Below are positions 35,541 to 52,971 of a stretch of 64,000 bases of DNA, in pieces (the stretch's first letter is position 1; each line of letters opens with the position of its first letter). The position numbers and the translations under genes are program-made. The notes beneath the pieces are model-generated. The model had not been told where the DNA came from. It did not search any database and saw only the letters and a list, made by a program, of their open reading frames with translations. Source of the stretch: a virus. Its lineage: Duplodnaviria; Heunggongvirae; Uroviricota; Caudoviricetes. The stretch lies in the IMG/VR virus record IMGVR_UViG_3300028833_000137. The stretch is one strand, 5' to 3'.

Positions 35541-35617
35541 TGGTGGGGAAGGAGAGAGTTGAACTCTCAAACCACCGGTTCTAAGCCGGTTCCATATGCC
35601 AGTTCTGGTACATCCCC
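35541..35617 (-). tRNA. tRNA with anticodon UAG (leucine codons CUA/CUG) but class I architecture
   Basis: Acceptor GGGGAUG/CUUCCCC (one U.U), anticodon stem ACCGG/CCGGU, loop CUUAGAA, 5-nt variable region GGUUU, T-arm GAGAG-UUCAACU-CUCUC, A73, CCA. Confidence 0.5.
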
Positions 35618-35939
35618 AAATTCTAGGCGGATTTTTAGCTACATAATTTAAAAGATTACTGCTTAAATAATATTTGCTGTGGCCGCCTTACATATTTATT
35701 ATAGCAGATTTTCTGCTAAAAGTCAAATATAACCTTCTTGATCTAACCAATCCTTAACAATTTTTAAACACTGGTCTAACATTTTATTTCCATAATATGC
35801 TTCAGCTCGTTGCTCTCTAGTAGAATCGTAGCCCAAAACATCATATTCGAGACGAAGCTTTTCAAGCAGTTGAATTAAATCCATATTATTTATTCCTTTC
35901 CCTTTACTATAATTATTATACTATAATTTTAAAAGAAAG

Positions 35940-36290
35940 TCAAATATATTCAAACCTATCAAACATTTGTTGATACTGCTTCACATGATTATGAAAAACC
36001 TTACCCATTAATACTTCGTTCTCATGTTCATCTAACATATAGATTCGCGCGCAATCGGTGGTAAAACTTTCTCTTCCACGTGGATGGCTTAGACTTTTCG
36101 CGCATTTTTCAATCATTTTAATATCAATGCAATTAAGTTCCATACGACCGTCTGTTCCTACAATGATAAAGACAGGTAGATCGTTTTTTAGAAAAGGTTT
36201 AACATTTGCTAACTTGCCGCACCACTTTACAAAGTATTCATCATTAAGTCCTGTGCAAATTAAATGCGTCTTTAACATTACTTCTTGCAT
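35940..36290 (-). CDS. hypothetical protein
   Basis: ORF downstream of a family promoter. Confidence 0.3.
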   Translation of the reverse strand: MQEVMLKTHLICTGLNDEYFVKWCGKLANVKPFLKNDLPVFIIVGTDGRMELNCIDIKMIEKCAKSLSHPRGRESFTTDCARIYMLDEHENEVLMGKVFHNHVKQYQQMFDRFEYI

Positions 36291-36583
36291 TGATGAAATG
36301 AGGCGAAGAAATTAGTTATGTCTTCACCGACCTCTCTTTCCGTTGTAACTTCACATGGAGCGGGCTTTGATTCATGCTTTGGATTATGCGCTTTCCAACA
36401 TTGAAGAAAATGTTTTGTAATAATTTCTTCATTTTTAAAGCCGCGATTGCAAGTAGGACAAATATACATTTTATTTTCATCCTTTCTAAAATAATTATAA
36501 TATGATTTTAGAAGAAAGTCAAATGGTAGCCCAATCTTCATCTGAAATTGCTTTGATTTCCATCTTTTTAGATGGCAAACCAT
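36278..36583 (-). CDS. C2H2-like zinc-finger protein
   Basis: CPTCNRGFKNEEIITKHFLQCWKAH. Confidence 0.3.
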   Translation of the reverse strand: MVCHLKRWKSKQFQMKIGLPFDFLLKSYYNYFRKDENKMYICPTCNRGFKNEEIITKHFLQCWKAHNPKHESKPAPCEVTTEREVGEDITNFFASFHQCKK

Positions 36584-37280
36584 AATTTAAACACCATTTT
36601 CTTACAGCATTATCGCTTACATTATATTTTTTACCTATTTGTAAAAAAGGTGTAGAACGAATTAATTTTTTAAGTTCTTCGCGGGAAGGCCACTCACATC
36701 TTCGTTGAAATTCGTGAATACAAGCTTGGCAATATTCAGCATCTTTTGTCGATAATGGACGGCCGCACTTTTTACAATAAGCAATTTTAGAAGATTTTAC
36801 TGAAGTTATTTTAATATATTCATCCTCTTTCAATGCTTCATCATCTAATTGTATAATATTATATTTATTTTTTATATTATTAATTCTAATCCAATTCGCC
36901 CCACCTTGAGAACAGCCAATAAGTTTGGTAGCTTGATTTACATTTGCTGTAGATTTTAAAGCTTTTATAGCTTCTTCTTCTGTAAAATTAATTATTTCTT
37001 TATTGGTTTTATTTTTCCCGCAATAAGTATCTGTTTGAGAATGGCAGTTTGGACATAACCACCTTAAATTTTCTTTTCTATTATCATTTCTTATTCCATT
37101 TATATGATCTATTTGTAATGTTAAAGAAATTCCATTCCACTCTCCAATATTACCACATATAGCGCATTTATAATCTAAAACATTATATTTCGCTAAATAA
37201 GTAATTAAAACTTTTCTAGTAACGGGGGAATTTTCTGTTAATACTTCTTCTAATTTATATTTTAGTGGCATATTAACCAC
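36519..37280 (-). CDS. HNH homing endonuclease
   Basis: DHINGIRNDNRKENLRWLCPNCH HNH motif plus additional CxxC pairs. Confidence 0.6.
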   Translation of the reverse strand: MVNMPLKYKLEEVLTENSPVTRKVLITYLAKYNVLDYKCAICGNIGEWNGISLTLQIDHINGIRNDNRKENLRWLCPNCHSQTDTYCGKNKTNKEIINFTEEEAIKALKSTANVNQATKLIGCSQGGANWIRINNIKNKYNIIQLDDEALKEDEYIKITSVKSSKIAYCKKCGRPLSTKDAEYCQACIHEFQRRCEWPSREELKKLIRSTPFLQIGKKYNVSDNAVRKWCLNYGLPSKKMEIKAISDEDWATI

Positions 37281-37349
37281 CTCCTTACATTAGATAAGTA
37301 ATAACATCGAACTCAAATTATTATAATTCGCACTCGAATTATAAATTTT

Positions 37350-37426
37350 TTTGGTGAGCTTGGTGGGAGTCGAACCCACAAAACCTTGGGTTTGAGCCAA
37401 GTACCTATGCCAATTCGGTTACAAGC
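37350..37426 (-). tRNA. tRNA with anticodon CAA (leucine codon UUG) but class I architecture
   Basis: Perfect acceptor GAGCUUG/CAAGCUC, anticodon stem CUUGG/CCAAG, loop CUCAAAC, 5-nt variable region, T-arm GUGGG-UUCGACU-CCCAC, A73, CCA. Confidence 0.5.
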
Positions 37427-37429
37427 TCA

Positions 37430-37565
37430 TATGGTGGGCTAGGAGGGATTTGAACCCTCAATCTCTCACGAGCAGCGGATTTTTGGTTCCCGATACGAGT
37501 GCTGCCCTCGCATAAATTCACTGGAAATCGGAAAAGTCCGCTATGTATGCCGTTCCATCACTAGC
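37430..37565 (-). tRNA. tRNA-like gene with perfect acceptor and T-arm enclosing about 135 nt (insertion of about 60 nt); anticodon not resolved
   Basis: Acceptor GGGCUAG/CUAGCCC 7/7, T-arm GAGGG-UUCAAAU-CCCUC, A73, CCA. Interior carries GAGGGCAGCACUCG, related to the GGGCAGyACC motif seen elsewhere. Confidence 0.35.
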
Positions 37566-38360
37566 CCATAATGGCGATTTTTATTGTTGTTCGCCGCAAC
37601 GTTAAGTTTTCTTTTCTGGTTTGCGGTTTACACTTACAACCCACAACAAGCTCCATTATCTACTCCATACCAGAAGAGTAATAATTTCATTGCTTATGCC
37701 ACGCATCTTGTGCAGGGCTGCCGAATACGCTTTCACGTATTCTAAGACTCCTTGTACACTTGGTACACGAGATAGCGGTAACGCCATTAATATTGGCCGC
37801 AATTTGCTGAACTAATCTGGCGTTTAAATCTGCCACTCATCAAGCTTTTCAGCCTGCTCGCGGCGAGTCCAAGAAGAAGAGAATACGGTACGATGAGAAG
37901 TCTTACGCACAATTATCATCCTTTCCTTGTTTCTATAAATATTATATCACAATTTTTATTCTTCGTCAAATAATTCTTTTAGTTGACTTTGAAAATTATC
38001 AAATTGACGCAATGCTTGTCGTTCTTGCCGCTTATCAACGGCGTATGATGCTGGCATATTTTTTGAATAATAATGTAATGGCTTAGACAAATTACCCGCA
38101 AGAATTTTCTTGCGTTTATTGGCATACTTCCAGTCATTCTTACGGCGTTCAGCCGCGGTTCTACCAGTTGTAGAAAACGCATCCGAATAGGTTGATGAAG
38201 GGTCATAATCATCAAGATAATCTCTACTATACATTAATCTTCTATCCCCATTCCTAAATCACATTCATCAATCCAAAACCAGAAAGAATCATCTTCATAT
38301 TCATCTGATTGAATTTCGCAAACAAAATCATCAAGATAATCCATAAATATTTGTTCCTTT

Positions 38361-38404
38361 CCTCTTACTATAATAATTATACTATAATTTTTATAGAAAG
38401 TCAA
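38361..38404 (-). promoter_or_regulatory. reference copy of the conserved sigma70-type promoter
   Basis: TTGACT at 38404-38399, spacer ttctataaaaattatag of 17 nt with inverted repeat CTATAA-AAA-TTATAG, TATAAT at 38381-38376. Leader has AGGAAAGGA 9 nt before the ATG at 38344. Confidence 0.65.
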
Positions 38405-52116: not shown

Positions 52117-52193
52117 TGGCACCGGCGGTGAGACTCTAACTCACGACTTACAATTTAGAAGACTGTTGTTCTATACATCTGAACTACGCCGGC
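52117..52193 (-). tRNA. tRNA-Arg(UCU)
   Basis: Acceptor GCCGGCG/CGCCGGU, D-arm GUUC-AGAUGUAUA-GAAC, anticodon ACAGU-CUUCUAA-AUUGU, CCA. The T-loop UUAGAGU has A at position 56, which is unusual. Confidence 0.65.
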
Positions 52194-52239
52194 AGATAAC
52201 ACCAAATACTAAAAGCTTGATTAAGTATCAACTTTTTTC

Positions 52240-52341
52240 TAGGCACTCGTTTTGCTTAATAACGACGGCCTTTAGTATTTGGCGGTTCAATCTTCTATAT
52301 ATCATCCAATACTTATATAAGAAAATTGCTGTTTGTGCCTA
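52240..52341 (-). ncRNA. stem-CAGCAAU element (interior with an alternative 13-bp hairpin)
   Basis: Terminal helix UAGGCAC/GUGCCUA followed by AAACAGCAAUU. A competing 13-bp inverted repeat AAAUACUAAAGGC/GCUUUUAGUAUUU lies inside. Confidence 0.35.
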
Positions 52342-52356
52342 ACCGCAATGCGGAAT

Positions 52357-52432
52357 TGGTGGCTAGGGGTGGAGTCGAGCCACCCTCCACGGATTTTCAG
52401 TCCGTTGCTCTCACCCTTTAAGCTACCTAGCC
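52357..52432 (-). tRNA. tRNA-Phe(GAA)
   Basis: Perfect acceptor GGCUAGG/CCUAGCC, anticodon ACGGA-CUGAAAA-UCCGU, T-arm GGUGG-CUCGACU-CCACC, CCA. Confidence 0.75.
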
Positions 52433-52439
52433 ATAATCT

Positions 52440-52564
52440 AGACCCATTTTCTTTCACGTGCGTCTGCTAACTTGCGCCACCGCCCCATATTGGTGGGGCG
52501 GGTTGGATTTGCACCAACACTTTTCGGGATTTACAGTCCATATAATGAATTGCTGTATGGGTCT
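52440..52564 (-). ncRNA. stem-CAGCAAU element enclosing a circularly permuted tRNA-like module (YrlA-like candidate)
   Basis: Terminal helix AGACCCAU/AUGGGUCU, then ACAGCAAU. Interior: hairpin GGA-CUGUAAA-UCC, T-arm GUUGG-UGCAAAU-CCAAC, acceptor 3' strand CCGCCCC, loop ACCAAUAU, acceptor 5' strand GGGGCGG, then a D-arm-like hairpin. Confidence 0.45.
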
Positions 52565-52567
52565 TAG

Positions 52568-52640
52568 TGCGAAGTGACGGGCTCGAACCGCCGACCCTCA
52601 CGGTGTAAACGTGATGCTCTCCCAGCTGAGCTAACCTCGC
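52568..52640 (-). tRNA. tRNA-Val(UAC)
   Basis: Acceptor GCGAGGU/ACUUCGC, D-arm GCUC-AGCUGGGA-GAGC, anticodon UCACG-UUUACAC-CGUGA, T-arm GGCGG-UUCGAGC-CCGUC. Confidence 0.75.
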
Positions 52641-52897
52641 ATAAATCTGGCGTCCATATAATTATGTCGGTAACGCGCCGCCAGAAGCACGGCTACATTT
52701 TCTATCAGTAAGTACTCACGTCATGTATTACTCTCTTGCGTTATTATGCTTTATTTCATCCTCAATTGGTATATCGTTTCTCCAATTGAGGCGTAATACT
52801 ACCGCCACCCTTCCGCGCCTTGTAGCCACAGCCATATCGGGTGGATTCCGTTCTTTCTATAAATATTATATCAAAATTTATGTAAGAAGTCAAATAG

Positions 52898-52971
52898 TAT
52901 CCCACCCGAGATTTGAACTCGGAAAATCCAGAACCTTAATCTGACGCGTATGCCAATTCCGCCAGTGGGAC
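52898..52971 (-). tRNA. tRNA with anticodon AAG (leucine codons CUN if A34 is modified to I) and class I architecture
   Basis: Acceptor GUCCCAC/GUGGGAU, anticodon UCAGA-UUAAGGU-UCUGG, 5-nt variable region, T-arm CCGAG-UUCAAAU-CUCGG, A73. A family promoter TTGACT at 52893-52888 abuts its 3' end. Confidence 0.45.

Follow-up and report, generated by a model that had tools for sequence, protein, structure and literature searches.

Three short transfer RNA (tRNA) genes with the leucine anticodons UAG, CAA and AAG lie on the minus strand of a 64,000-nucleotide (nt) stretch of the Caudoviricetes virus record IMGVR_UViG_3300028833_000137, here called the window. The three genes are very probably functional leucine tRNAs of a widespread lineage that lacks the long variable arm of class II tRNA-Leu. 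The argument is carried by the genes themselves, their structure, the family-wide conservation and covariation, and the leucine-like usage of the codons that they match, and from these we infer that the tRNAs are expressed and charged with leucine. Judged by its sequence signature, the short form of tRNA-Leu is genuine and widespread in phages and bacterial tRNA arrays, and is not unique to the window phage, a large phage encoding gyrase A and B, a DnaB-like helicase, PhoH, DNA ligase and tail proteins. A natural type I tRNA-Leu is already known from Streptomyces, and the annotations of cultured phages already include homologous genes; the breadth and the uniform signature of the arm-less lineage seem to be previously undescribed.

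Anatomy and probable leucine identity of the three short tRNAs

ARAGORN called 27 tRNA genes in the window, every one on the minus strand and all between 31.2 and 53.1 kilobases (kb). tRNA-Leu(UAG) occupies positions 35541..35617, tRNA-Leu(CAA) 37352..37428 and tRNA-Leu(AAG) 52897..52971. They are of class-I size, with called lengths of 75-77 nt: Leu(UAG) (ARAGORN anticodon tag) and Leu(CAA) (caa) consist of 74 nt followed by an encoded CCA, and Leu(AAG) (aag) has its A73 at 52898, which is followed by CUA with no encoded CCA. Rfam RF00005 matched the three genes with 55.5, 60.0 and 49.1 bits and E-values of 1e-9, 7e-11 and 7e-8, respectively, and because these scores are far above the gathering score of 29, chance is excluded. 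An original prediction made from the letters alone had proposed three class-I-sized tRNAs with these anticodons, which both programs confirm. Its coordinates were exact for Leu(UAG), but those for Leu(CAA), 37350-37426, were 2 nt away from the ARAGORN call.

The three tRNAs are built alike, with an acceptor stem of 7 base pairs (bp), anticodon and T stems of 5 bp each and an anticodon loop of 7 nt, and the minus-strand sequence bears out the A73, 5-bp anticodon stems and 7-nt loops that had been predicted for all of them. U33, a purine at position 37 and a canonical T loop are likewise present throughout. In order from the 5' end, the parts of Leu(UAG) are GGGGAUG UA CCA GAACUGGCAUA UGG A ACCGG CUUAGAA CCGGU GGUUU GAGAG UUCAACU CUCUC CUUCCCC A CCA, those of Leu(CAA) are GAGCUUG UA ACC GAAUUGGCAUA GGU A CUUGG CUCAAAC CCAAG GUUUU GUGGG UUCGACU CCCAC CAAGCUC A CCA, and those of Leu(AAG) are GUCCCAC UG GCG GAAUUGGCAUA CGC G UCAGA UUAAGGU UCUGG AUUUU CCGAG UUCAAAU CUCGG GUGGGAU A. 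The variable loops, GGUUU in Leu(UAG), GUUUU in Leu(CAA) and AUUUU in Leu(AAG), each end in U48; all are 5 nt long and none is 4 nt, so that only the upper value of the predicted 4-5 nt holds. A variable arm of more than 10 nt forming a stem-loop, the mark of class II, is absent from all three. The class II tRNAs that ARAGORN found in the array are three Ser tRNAs (90-94 nt) and a Tyr tRNA (88 nt) with variable arms of 15-20 nt, and these long-armed tRNAs indicate that the host system is bacterial and that the contrast with the short leucine tRNAs is real. The original prediction nevertheless went too far in taking class II as the norm for phage tRNA-Leu, as class-I-size tRNA-Leu is common in phage contigs, cultured phages and bacterial tRNA arrays. 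The window does contain a class II tRNA-Leu, the Leu(UAA) gene at 37432-37567, which is hidden from default scans by a 50-nt insert.

Leucine identity is indicated above all by the D arm, which in the three short tRNAs is a 3-bp stem with the 11-nt loop GAAYUGGCAUA and is found in this form in no other tRNA of the array. The identity set of an Escherichia coli-type leucyl-tRNA synthetase (LeuRS) is complete at the sequence level: A73, A15-U48, U8-A14, G18G19, the equivalent of A20a, an enlarged D loop and a 3-bp D stem. The tertiary pairs, including the Levitt pair A15-U48, would be expected to form in all three tRNAs. Together with the canonical T loop, these features support one option of the original prediction, that the genes are leucine tRNAs relying on A73 and tertiary elements. 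Leucylation in E. coli requires A73, A15-U48, G18G19 and A20a, whereas activity does not correlate with how the long arm of tRNA-Leu is folded or with its sequence, and arm-less variants are still active (PMC9976931).

An isotype survey of the D loop, made with ARAGORN on the window and 122 fetched loci that were picked through the D-loop motif (1655 tRNAs), found the motif GAAYUGGYANA in 137 of 246 Leu tRNAs, 11 of 86 Glu tRNAs, 3 of 70 Gln tRNAs and no more than one tRNA in each of the remaining isotypes. The class II Leu tRNAs of the same loci have the same D loop or close variants of it, such as GAAUAGGUAGA. Since the motif is enriched in leucine tRNAs and is present in class II tRNA-Leu, the D arm is a leucine hallmark of long and short forms alike. 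In the motif-picked viral loci, class II tRNA-Leu is mostly UAA (35/67) and class I tRNA-Leu mostly UAG and CAA (126/175), the same split as in the window, with ratios of the two classes that are biased by the ascertainment of the loci through the motif.

The best-supported interpretation is that the host LeuRS would charge the three tRNAs with leucine and that they would act as elongator tRNAs, the UAG anticodon reading CUA (and possibly CUG), CAA reading UUG, and AAG reading CUU, plus CUC and CUA if A34 is deaminated to inosine. The lineage would have swapped the long variable arm for a 5-nt loop with the consensus RUUYU and an invariant U48, keeping the known bacterial LeuRS elements: A73, U8-A14, the A15-U48 Levitt pair, the canonical T loop and the Leu D arm, whose 3-bp stem and 11-nt loop GAAYUGGYAKA would position G18G19 and the A20a equivalent. 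LeuRS does not read the arm, which could explain how it came to be lost, and the phage Ser and Tyr tRNAs would keep their arms because seryl-tRNA synthetase and bacterial tyrosyl-tRNA synthetase do read them.

Leucine-like features were also seen outside the leucine isotype. The tRNA-Lys(CUU) of the array (51736-51812, minus strand) has a Leu-like D arm, GCA-CAAUUGGCUAA-UGC, together with U48 and A73, and its acceptor stem is similar to that of Leu(AAG). Eleven class I tRNAs with the UUC (Glu) anticodon, in the IMG/VR loci L008, L019, L037, L050, L054, L067, L079, L085, L091, L111 and L115, combine U48 and A73 with the Leu-type D loop GAAYUGGUAGA. They may be Leu-bodied, or they may be ordinary Glu tRNAs of phages, in which A73 is frequent.

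Distribution of the lineage, decoding and rival explanations

The IMG/VR database was scanned with a pattern that required the Leu D loop and, as far as GTTCRA, class-I spacing, and that set no condition on the anticodon, A73 or U48. The scan gave 128 matches in at least 120 contigs, and 113 of them (88%) have a leucine anticodon, whereas 9% would be expected by chance, 6 of the 64 triplets being leucine anticodons. Among the 113 viral leucine matches listed, the anticodons are UAG (70), UAA (17), CAA (16), AAG (6), CAG (3) and GAG (1); A73 and U48 are each present in 113/113, CCA is encoded in 89/113, and the usual variable loops are ATTTT, GTTTT and GTTCT. We define the family by a leucine anticodon, the Leu-type D loop, a 5-nt variable loop with U48, A73 and a 74-nt cloverleaf, all of which are found in each of the three window genes. 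Across 104 distinct sequences, including those of the window, the cloverleaf is paired in 95.8% of cells and 707 cells have changed on both sides; slid partners pair in only 33-46%, and none of 500 shuffles reached the observed values. A profile trained on the viral class I Leu genes with the anticodon masked gave 59.0 bits for Leu(CAA), 42.2 for Leu(AAG) and 35.8 for Leu(UAG), and at most 19.6 bits for 21 of the 22 other class-I-size tRNAs of the window.

The lineage extends to bacteria. When the same pattern was applied to one genome per bacterial species, with lower bounds given by the matches listed, at least 79 matches fold as cloverleaves and at least 70 of these have leucine anticodons, 68 of them with A73 and 70/70 with U48. 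The 70 bacterial genes listed occupy 66 loci, of which 50 have at least five tRNA genes within 8 kb or less and so are tRNA arrays; examples among the matches listed are several Chryseobacterium species, Acidobacteriota and cyanobacteria. A survey of tRNA arrays noted the enrichment of Leu(UAG) in them and did not discuss arm length. Our literature search found no description of class I tRNA-Leu in phages, and it did turn up the Streptomyces coelicolor paper and the identity review. The breadth and uniform signature of the lineage contradict a general statement in a recent review.

No close cultured relative of the window was found by DNA or protein search: its GyrA matches are about 31% identical and of bacterial type, and a protein of 757 amino acids is without a match. 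Exact-word scans recovered the syntenic IMG/VR relatives L124-L128, which are 72-98% identical in nucleotide sequence, and all three short Leu genes are kept among them. The Leu(CAA) orthologs in L124-L127 are nearly invariant, with C4-G69 replaced by U4-A69 in L126. The Leu(UAG) orthologs in L124, L126 and L127 differ in every stem and keep the pairing through many compensatory changes, and the Leu(AAG) ortholog in L128 is identical and there encodes CCA.

The anticodons suit the codon usage of the phage. In the 56 minus-strand open reading frames (ORFs) of the window the leucine codons are UUA (44.7%), CUU (24.0%), CUA (17.7%), UUG (7.8%), CUC (3.4%) and CUG (2.3%), and the three short tRNAs thus match the second- to fourth-ranked codons, about half of all leucine codons. 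Reassignment was assessed by aligning the window GyrA and GyrB with three bacterial-type homologs at about 31% identity. The homologs have leucine at 46% of CUU positions, 24% of CUA positions and 38% of UUG positions, and leucine or one of the residues I, V, M and F at 76%, 59% and 73%, respectively; the corresponding values are 34% and 74% at the UUA control positions and 6% and 26% at the baseline of non-leucine positions. There is no sign in these two proteins, set against the three homologs, that CUU, CUA or UUG has been reassigned, and no suppressor anticodon occurs among the 27 ARAGORN tRNAs of the array. A34 had been called rare outside tRNA-Arg(ACG), which is right in general, yet tRNA-Leu(AAG) edited to inosine 34 (I34) is established in Lactobacillales, and the TadA of Streptococcus pyogenes, where tRNA-Leu(AAG) is edited to I34, recognizes the motif YUAMGRA (PMC13249217, PMC11472039). 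The anticodon loop of the window Leu(AAG), UUAAGGU, agrees with six of the seven positions of this motif, and Leu(AAG) may likewise be edited from A34 to I34.

Besides the ascertainment bias noted above, several observations weigh against leucine identity. The acceptor stem of Leu(UAG) has a single U6.U67 mismatch, and the tRNA-Lys(CUU) of the array is the exception to the class I Leu profile, at 40.0 bits, a value in the range of the three leucine tRNAs. A home-made isotype classifier of core profiles, trained on class II Leu and other isotypes and right for only 18 of 26 control tRNAs, placed Leu(AAG) best with Leu (37.5 versus 20.2) and Leu(CAA) narrowly so (32.4 versus 28.7), and Leu(UAG) closest to Cys (26.0). 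These core profiles replaced full-length isotype profiles, which were dropped because the long arm breaks local alignments and control accuracy was poor. Whole-sequence identity to class II Leu cores discriminates only Leu(AAG), not Leu(UAG) or Leu(CAA). The single LeuRS of S. coelicolor charges the type I tRNA-Leu(CAA) of that species with leucine (Fan et al. 2019, PMC6614811), for which good activity requires at least 5 nt in the variable loop, but the E. coli LeuRS could not leucylate this tRNA. Tolerance of a short loop is thus not universal. For phage class I tRNA-Leu in general, our literature search found no aminoacylation, expression or modification data.

Mischarging, decoy and reassignment roles had also been offered for the three genes and found no support. 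Recoding would require that tRNAs with leucine anticodons be charged with another amino acid, so that CUN and UUG codons were reassigned or blurred. Class-I size is unusual for bacterial tRNA-Leu, LeuRS does not read the anticodon, which makes anticodon and identity separable in principle, and the rough classifier put Leu(UAG) nearest to Cys. However, the leucine-specific D arm, A73 and U48 are present and invariant family-wide, CUU, CUA and UUG fall at leucine or aliphatic positions of the gyrase homologs at a rate like that of UUA, and the same type of tRNA is found in ordinary cultured coliphages and bacterial chromosomes, with no suppressor anticodon in the array; recoding is scarcely credible. 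A role outside translation, as a decoy, a regulatory tRNA-like RNA or a decaying pseudogene, is also very unlikely for the three genes. Such a role would have a parallel in the tRNA regions of phage T5, which contain tRNA-like stable RNAs annotated as of unassigned function, and would account for the stem mismatch of Leu(UAG) and for the CCA missing from Leu(AAG). However, CCA is not encoded in 24 of the 113 listed family members either, as in many ordinary tRNA genes, the complete cloverleaves covary and keep canonical loops with U33 and a purine at 37, the anticodons stay constant in syntenic relatives as the stems change, and they fit the leucine codons that the phage uses most after UUA.

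A further alternative concerns the reason for the loss of the arm and leaves the identity of the tRNAs as leucine tRNAs untouched. Short leucine tRNAs might evade host defense or toxin enzymes that select class II tRNAs by their long arm, which would make arm loss adaptive. The short form is widespread in phages, and the RNA-repair-type gene island within the tRNA array fits a phage in conflict with tRNA-damaging defenses; however, we know of no bacterial enzyme that targets tRNA-Leu via its long arm. Phage Ser, Tyr and Leu(UAA) tRNAs are still long-armed, and class I tRNA-Leu is present in bacterial genomes too. Enzymes that select class II tRNAs do exist: human SLFN11 is cited in PMC13056530 as cleaving type II tRNAs, and MenT3 nucleotidyltransferase toxins are described in PMC11541572 as favoring tRNA-Ser. 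The single characterized bacterial Schlafen, in contrast, cuts Lys, Ala and Met tRNAs and is not class-II-specific (PMC13056530). An adaptive loss is on balance unlikely, and we retain the explanation that the three genes are leucine tRNAs whose arm could be lost because it is not read.

Inserts in the anticodon loops of tRNA-Leu(UAA) and tRNA-Lys(UUU)

The class II tRNA-Leu(UAA) gene of the window (37432..37567, minus strand) is interrupted in its anticodon loop. It sits 3 nt upstream of Leu(CAA). The acceptor stem is GGGCUAG/CUAGCCC, the D arm is of Leu type, the variable arm is long, A73 and CCA are present, and the anticodon matches UUA, the commonest leucine codon of the phage. Default ARAGORN and Rfam overlooked the gene, which was found by folding and in relatives; with introns allowed, ARAGORN reports an intron-bearing tRNA at this site, and with the insert removed in silico it calls a perfect 86-nt tRNA-Leu(taa). 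The insert (37484..37533, minus strand) is 50 nt long and consists of a 7-bp helix, UUCCGAU/AUCGGGA, a CCAGUG linker, a 5-bp hairpin with a 7-nt loop that abuts the 3' strand of the helix, and a terminal A-CCA. It has no Rfam match at E<=1.

A motif scan with a relaxed pattern (a stricter first version matched one locus only) recovered the insert from 33 loci of viral or metagenomic origin. The inserts, of 47-50 nt, occur in 11 variants, and the tRNA-Leu(UAA) genes that hold them amount to 20 distinct sequences, of which a single one is class I. All 11 variants share the same design: a terminal helix of 6-9 bp, imperfect in the L125 and L249 types, the CCAGUG linker, a 5-bp hairpin with a 7-nt loop, one further nucleotide and CCA. 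The outer helix has several unrelated sequences that covary, and the hairpin covaries too. The junction varies among the variants between positions 32/33, 34/35 and 35/36, and excision from the first nucleotide of the helix to just past the CCA restores a CUUAAAA loop in 11/11. The intron junctions proposed by ARAGORN itself were rejected, as they give inconsistent anticodons (Phe aaa, Val tac, Leu caa), in contrast to the single structural rule that gives CUUAAAA throughout.

The tRNA-Lys(UUU) gene at 32022-32202 (minus strand), between tRNA-Ser(GCU) and tRNA-Gln(CUG), is likewise interrupted, by a 105-nt tRNA-like insert (32064-32168) that ends in ACCA. ARAGORN with introns allowed reports a gene at this site, and removal of the insert by the same excision rule yields a perfect 76-nt tRNA-Lys(UUU). 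The interrupted gene is identical in L124, and AAA makes up 68% of the lysine codons of the window. Sixteen distinct tRNAs across the loci obey the excision rule, including Leu-UAA, Asn-GUU, Lys-UUU, Glu-UUC, Ile-UAU, Thr-UGU and a few others. Among the nested elements, several show a canonical T loop and one amounts to a complete tRNA-like sequence of 77 nt. Other phage contigs with nested elements, in Asn-GUU, Glu-UUC, Ile-UAU and Thr-UGU genes, show a helix, a T-arm-like hairpin, one nucleotide and CCA (L306 5195-5318, L126 4523-4642, L033 4219-4339, L088 752-904, L028 8073-8216 and L051 9989-10179); L301 499-620 is included by analogy to L306 only and did not fit the scan for the excision rule. 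The phenomenon looks like a general one of tRNA-like elements inside tRNAs.

Sequence inspection revealed counterparts in phage T5. RNA1 of T5 (NC_005859; L123 3502-3645), of 144 nt, has a Leu-type D arm and an anticodon loop composed of C, a 40-nt insert and UUAAAA, with the 32/33 junction of the L125-type genes, and RNA2 (L123 5960-6084) contains a GCGAGGGCAG hairpin that resembles the window insert. With the GAGGGCAG hairpin common to T5 RNA2 and the window insert, inspection places the Leu(UAA) gene with the RNA1/RNA2 type. T5 RNA1 differs in its weak acceptor stem and its lack of ACCA ends, and it is annotated as a stable RNA with no function assigned, whereas the window Leu(UAA) has a perfect class II body with A73-CCA and an insert that ends in ACCA.

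We tentatively suggest that the Leu(UAA) and Lys(UUU) inserts may be a new kind of tRNA intron, in which nested tRNA-like elements are excised by the enzymes that process tRNA ends and the halves are then ligated, giving a decoding set that is phage-controlled or resistant to defense; the suggestion is less likely to be right than wrong. The nested element of each insert would comprise an acceptor-like helix, a T-arm-like hairpin, a discriminator and CCA. RNase P would cut 5' of the nested minihelix, at the first nucleotide of the helix, and an endonuclease acting at the CCA end would cut just past the CCA of the insert; both cuts would leave a 3'-hydroxyl and a 5'-phosphate, and the tRNA halves might be sealed by the phage RNA ligase, which is conserved in the clade a few kb away. 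The spliced products and the arm-less Leu tRNAs would then make up a leucine and lysine decoding set under the phage's own control, or one resistant to host anticodon-directed defenses. T5 RNA1, which is stable and apparently unspliced, argues for caution about reading the inserts as introns.

Known introns and ribozymes were considered for the insert. The group I intron of tRNA-Leu(UAA) is self-splicing, exceeds 200 nt, has the elements P1-P9 and a terminal G, and is inserted at 34/35; it was rejected here, as the inserts have 47-50 nt, end in ACCA without a terminal G, vary in junction and have no Rfam intron match. By inspection, there are no two 3-nt bulges 4 bp apart, as in the archaeal bulge-helix-bulge intron, and no CUGAUGA/GAAA core of a hammerhead. 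The topology of a ribozyme like that of hepatitis delta virus, or of a theta ribozyme, fits only up to P1, with no partner for P2. The paper on theta ribozymes locates them next to tRNAs, which lie no more than 5 nt from the cleavage site, and makes no mention of the anticodon loop. Our literature search found no description of anticodon-loop inserts of this kind.

The ligase belongs to an RNA-repair-type gene island inside the tRNA array (41632-50086, minus strand), whose genes encode an RNA ligase (PF09414, 41632-42282), a cREC_REC cyclic-phosphate-processing receiver domain (42971-43324), a TROVE-like RNA-binding protein (DUF2828/DUF7788, 43966-45498), a metallophosphoesterase (46440-47042) and an SPFH/Band 7 protein (49112-50086), all on the minus strand. 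Across the whole clade, the Leu gene that bears the insert has the ligase and the TROVE-like gene conserved in its vicinity. Three noncoding RNAs on the minus strand also lie close to tRNA genes: a full-length ROOL RNA (34597-35190; Rfam RF03087, 328.8 bits) between tRNA-Asn and tRNA-Leu(UAG), a drum RNA (37599-37695; RF02958, 52.7 bits) just upstream of the interrupted Leu(UAA), and a DUF3800-XI RNA (53077-53124; RF02975, 54 bits) just upstream of tRNA-Ser(UGA). At least 16 minus-strand copies of a conserved promoter-like repeat (TTGACT, a 17-nt spacer and TATAAT) stand upstream of ORFs and groups of tRNA genes, with the layout ATTTGACTTTCT, 17-nt spacing, TATAAT and TTATAG and often an extended -10 TG; example sites are 52848-52900, 35880-35955, 38350-38410, 42550-42612 and 49012-49080, and one copy begins right at the 3' end of Leu(AAG).

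Unusual arms were also observed in another isotype. Many phage tRNA-Ile(UAU) genes (in L005, L011, L013, L022, L025, L068, L071, L079, L085, L090, L107, L108, L114 and L115) are 87-96 nt long, with a class-II-like long variable arm containing a conserved CCAGAUUAG or CUAGAUAAG. L128 has a 90-nt Ile(UAU) at 1453-1542 where the window has a 76-nt Ile(UAU).

Significance and comparison with known leucine tRNAs

The biochemical study of the bacterial type I tRNA-Leu terms such a tRNA a rare case (PMC6614811). Annotation pipelines that flag an arm-less tRNA-Leu as an isotype mismatch or a pseudogene would, on our interpretation, be wrong. The lineage would represent a natural experiment on what LeuRS needs, with A73, A15-U48 and the D-loop geometry kept and the arm lost, and it could be tested in the cultured phages 4MG and PR1. 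The retention of Ser and Tyr arms and the loss of Leu arms in the same arrays agree with the known synthetase rules. The nested tRNA-like inserts, which covary, are precisely delimited and lie beside the RNA-repair island, may be the more important lead. Several of the insert-bearing tRNA types, among Leu-UAA, Lys-UUU, Asn-GUU and Glu-UUC, are classical targets of anticodon nucleases.

Cultured phages already carry genes of the same kind. The commonest IMG/VR class I Leu sequence matches 64 cultured-phage records; the matching genes of Escherichia phage 4MG and Providencia phage PR1 have 74 nt and are annotated as tRNA-Leu, and we came across no paper discussing the absence of the arm from them. 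The 74-nt tRNA-Leu genes of 4MG, Salmonella phage PVP-SE1, Cronobacter phage GAP31, PR1, and Proteus and Vibrio phages have the same architecture, are 77-86% identical to the IMG/VR consensus and lie in tRNA arrays, but at the level of whole genomes the phages that carry them show no relationship to the window. Phage T5, in contrast, has a class II Leu(UAG) of 85 nt, unlike the Leu(UAG) of the window.

The closest characterized parallel is the type I tRNA-Leu(CAA) of S. coelicolor, which also has a 5-nt variable loop and coexists with class II tRNA-Leu and a single LeuRS (PMC6614811). It is leucylated in vitro, is apparently essential, as attempts at a knockout failed, and the minimum of 5 nt in its loop includes position 48 (PMC6614811). 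The same coexistence of a 5-nt loop with class II tRNA-Leu is found in the window, whose Leu(UAA) is class II, and in the many viral loci that have class II Leu tRNAs. The Streptomyces tRNA differs from the phage family in its variable loop, ACAGC with C48 as opposed to RUUYU with an invariant U48, and in being encoded by a single chromosomal gene, whereas the window genes lie in a phage array. In Streptomyces, moreover, A73 is not an identity element and a special leucine-specific domain of LeuRS is required (PMC6614811).

Minimalist E. coli tRNA-Leu variants, as cited in PMC9976931 (Larkin et al. 2002), resemble the window tRNAs in that A73 and the tertiary core of D loop and T loop suffice for leucylation and editing without the long arm; those variants were engineered and assayed in vitro, whereas the window genes are natural. 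Animal mitochondrial tRNA-Leu is also of class-I size with A73, but its D and T loops are degenerate, its LeuRS is a dedicated mitochondrial enzyme and its sequence is unrelated to those of the phage tRNAs, whose core is fully canonical. The tRNA-Leu(AAG) of Lactobacillales, read as IAG, shares with the window Leu(AAG) an A34 in a leucine tRNA (PMC13249217, PMC11472039), but the cellular form is class II, with 89 nt in S. pyogenes, and the phage form combines the same anticodon with the short variable loop of the arm-less lineage.

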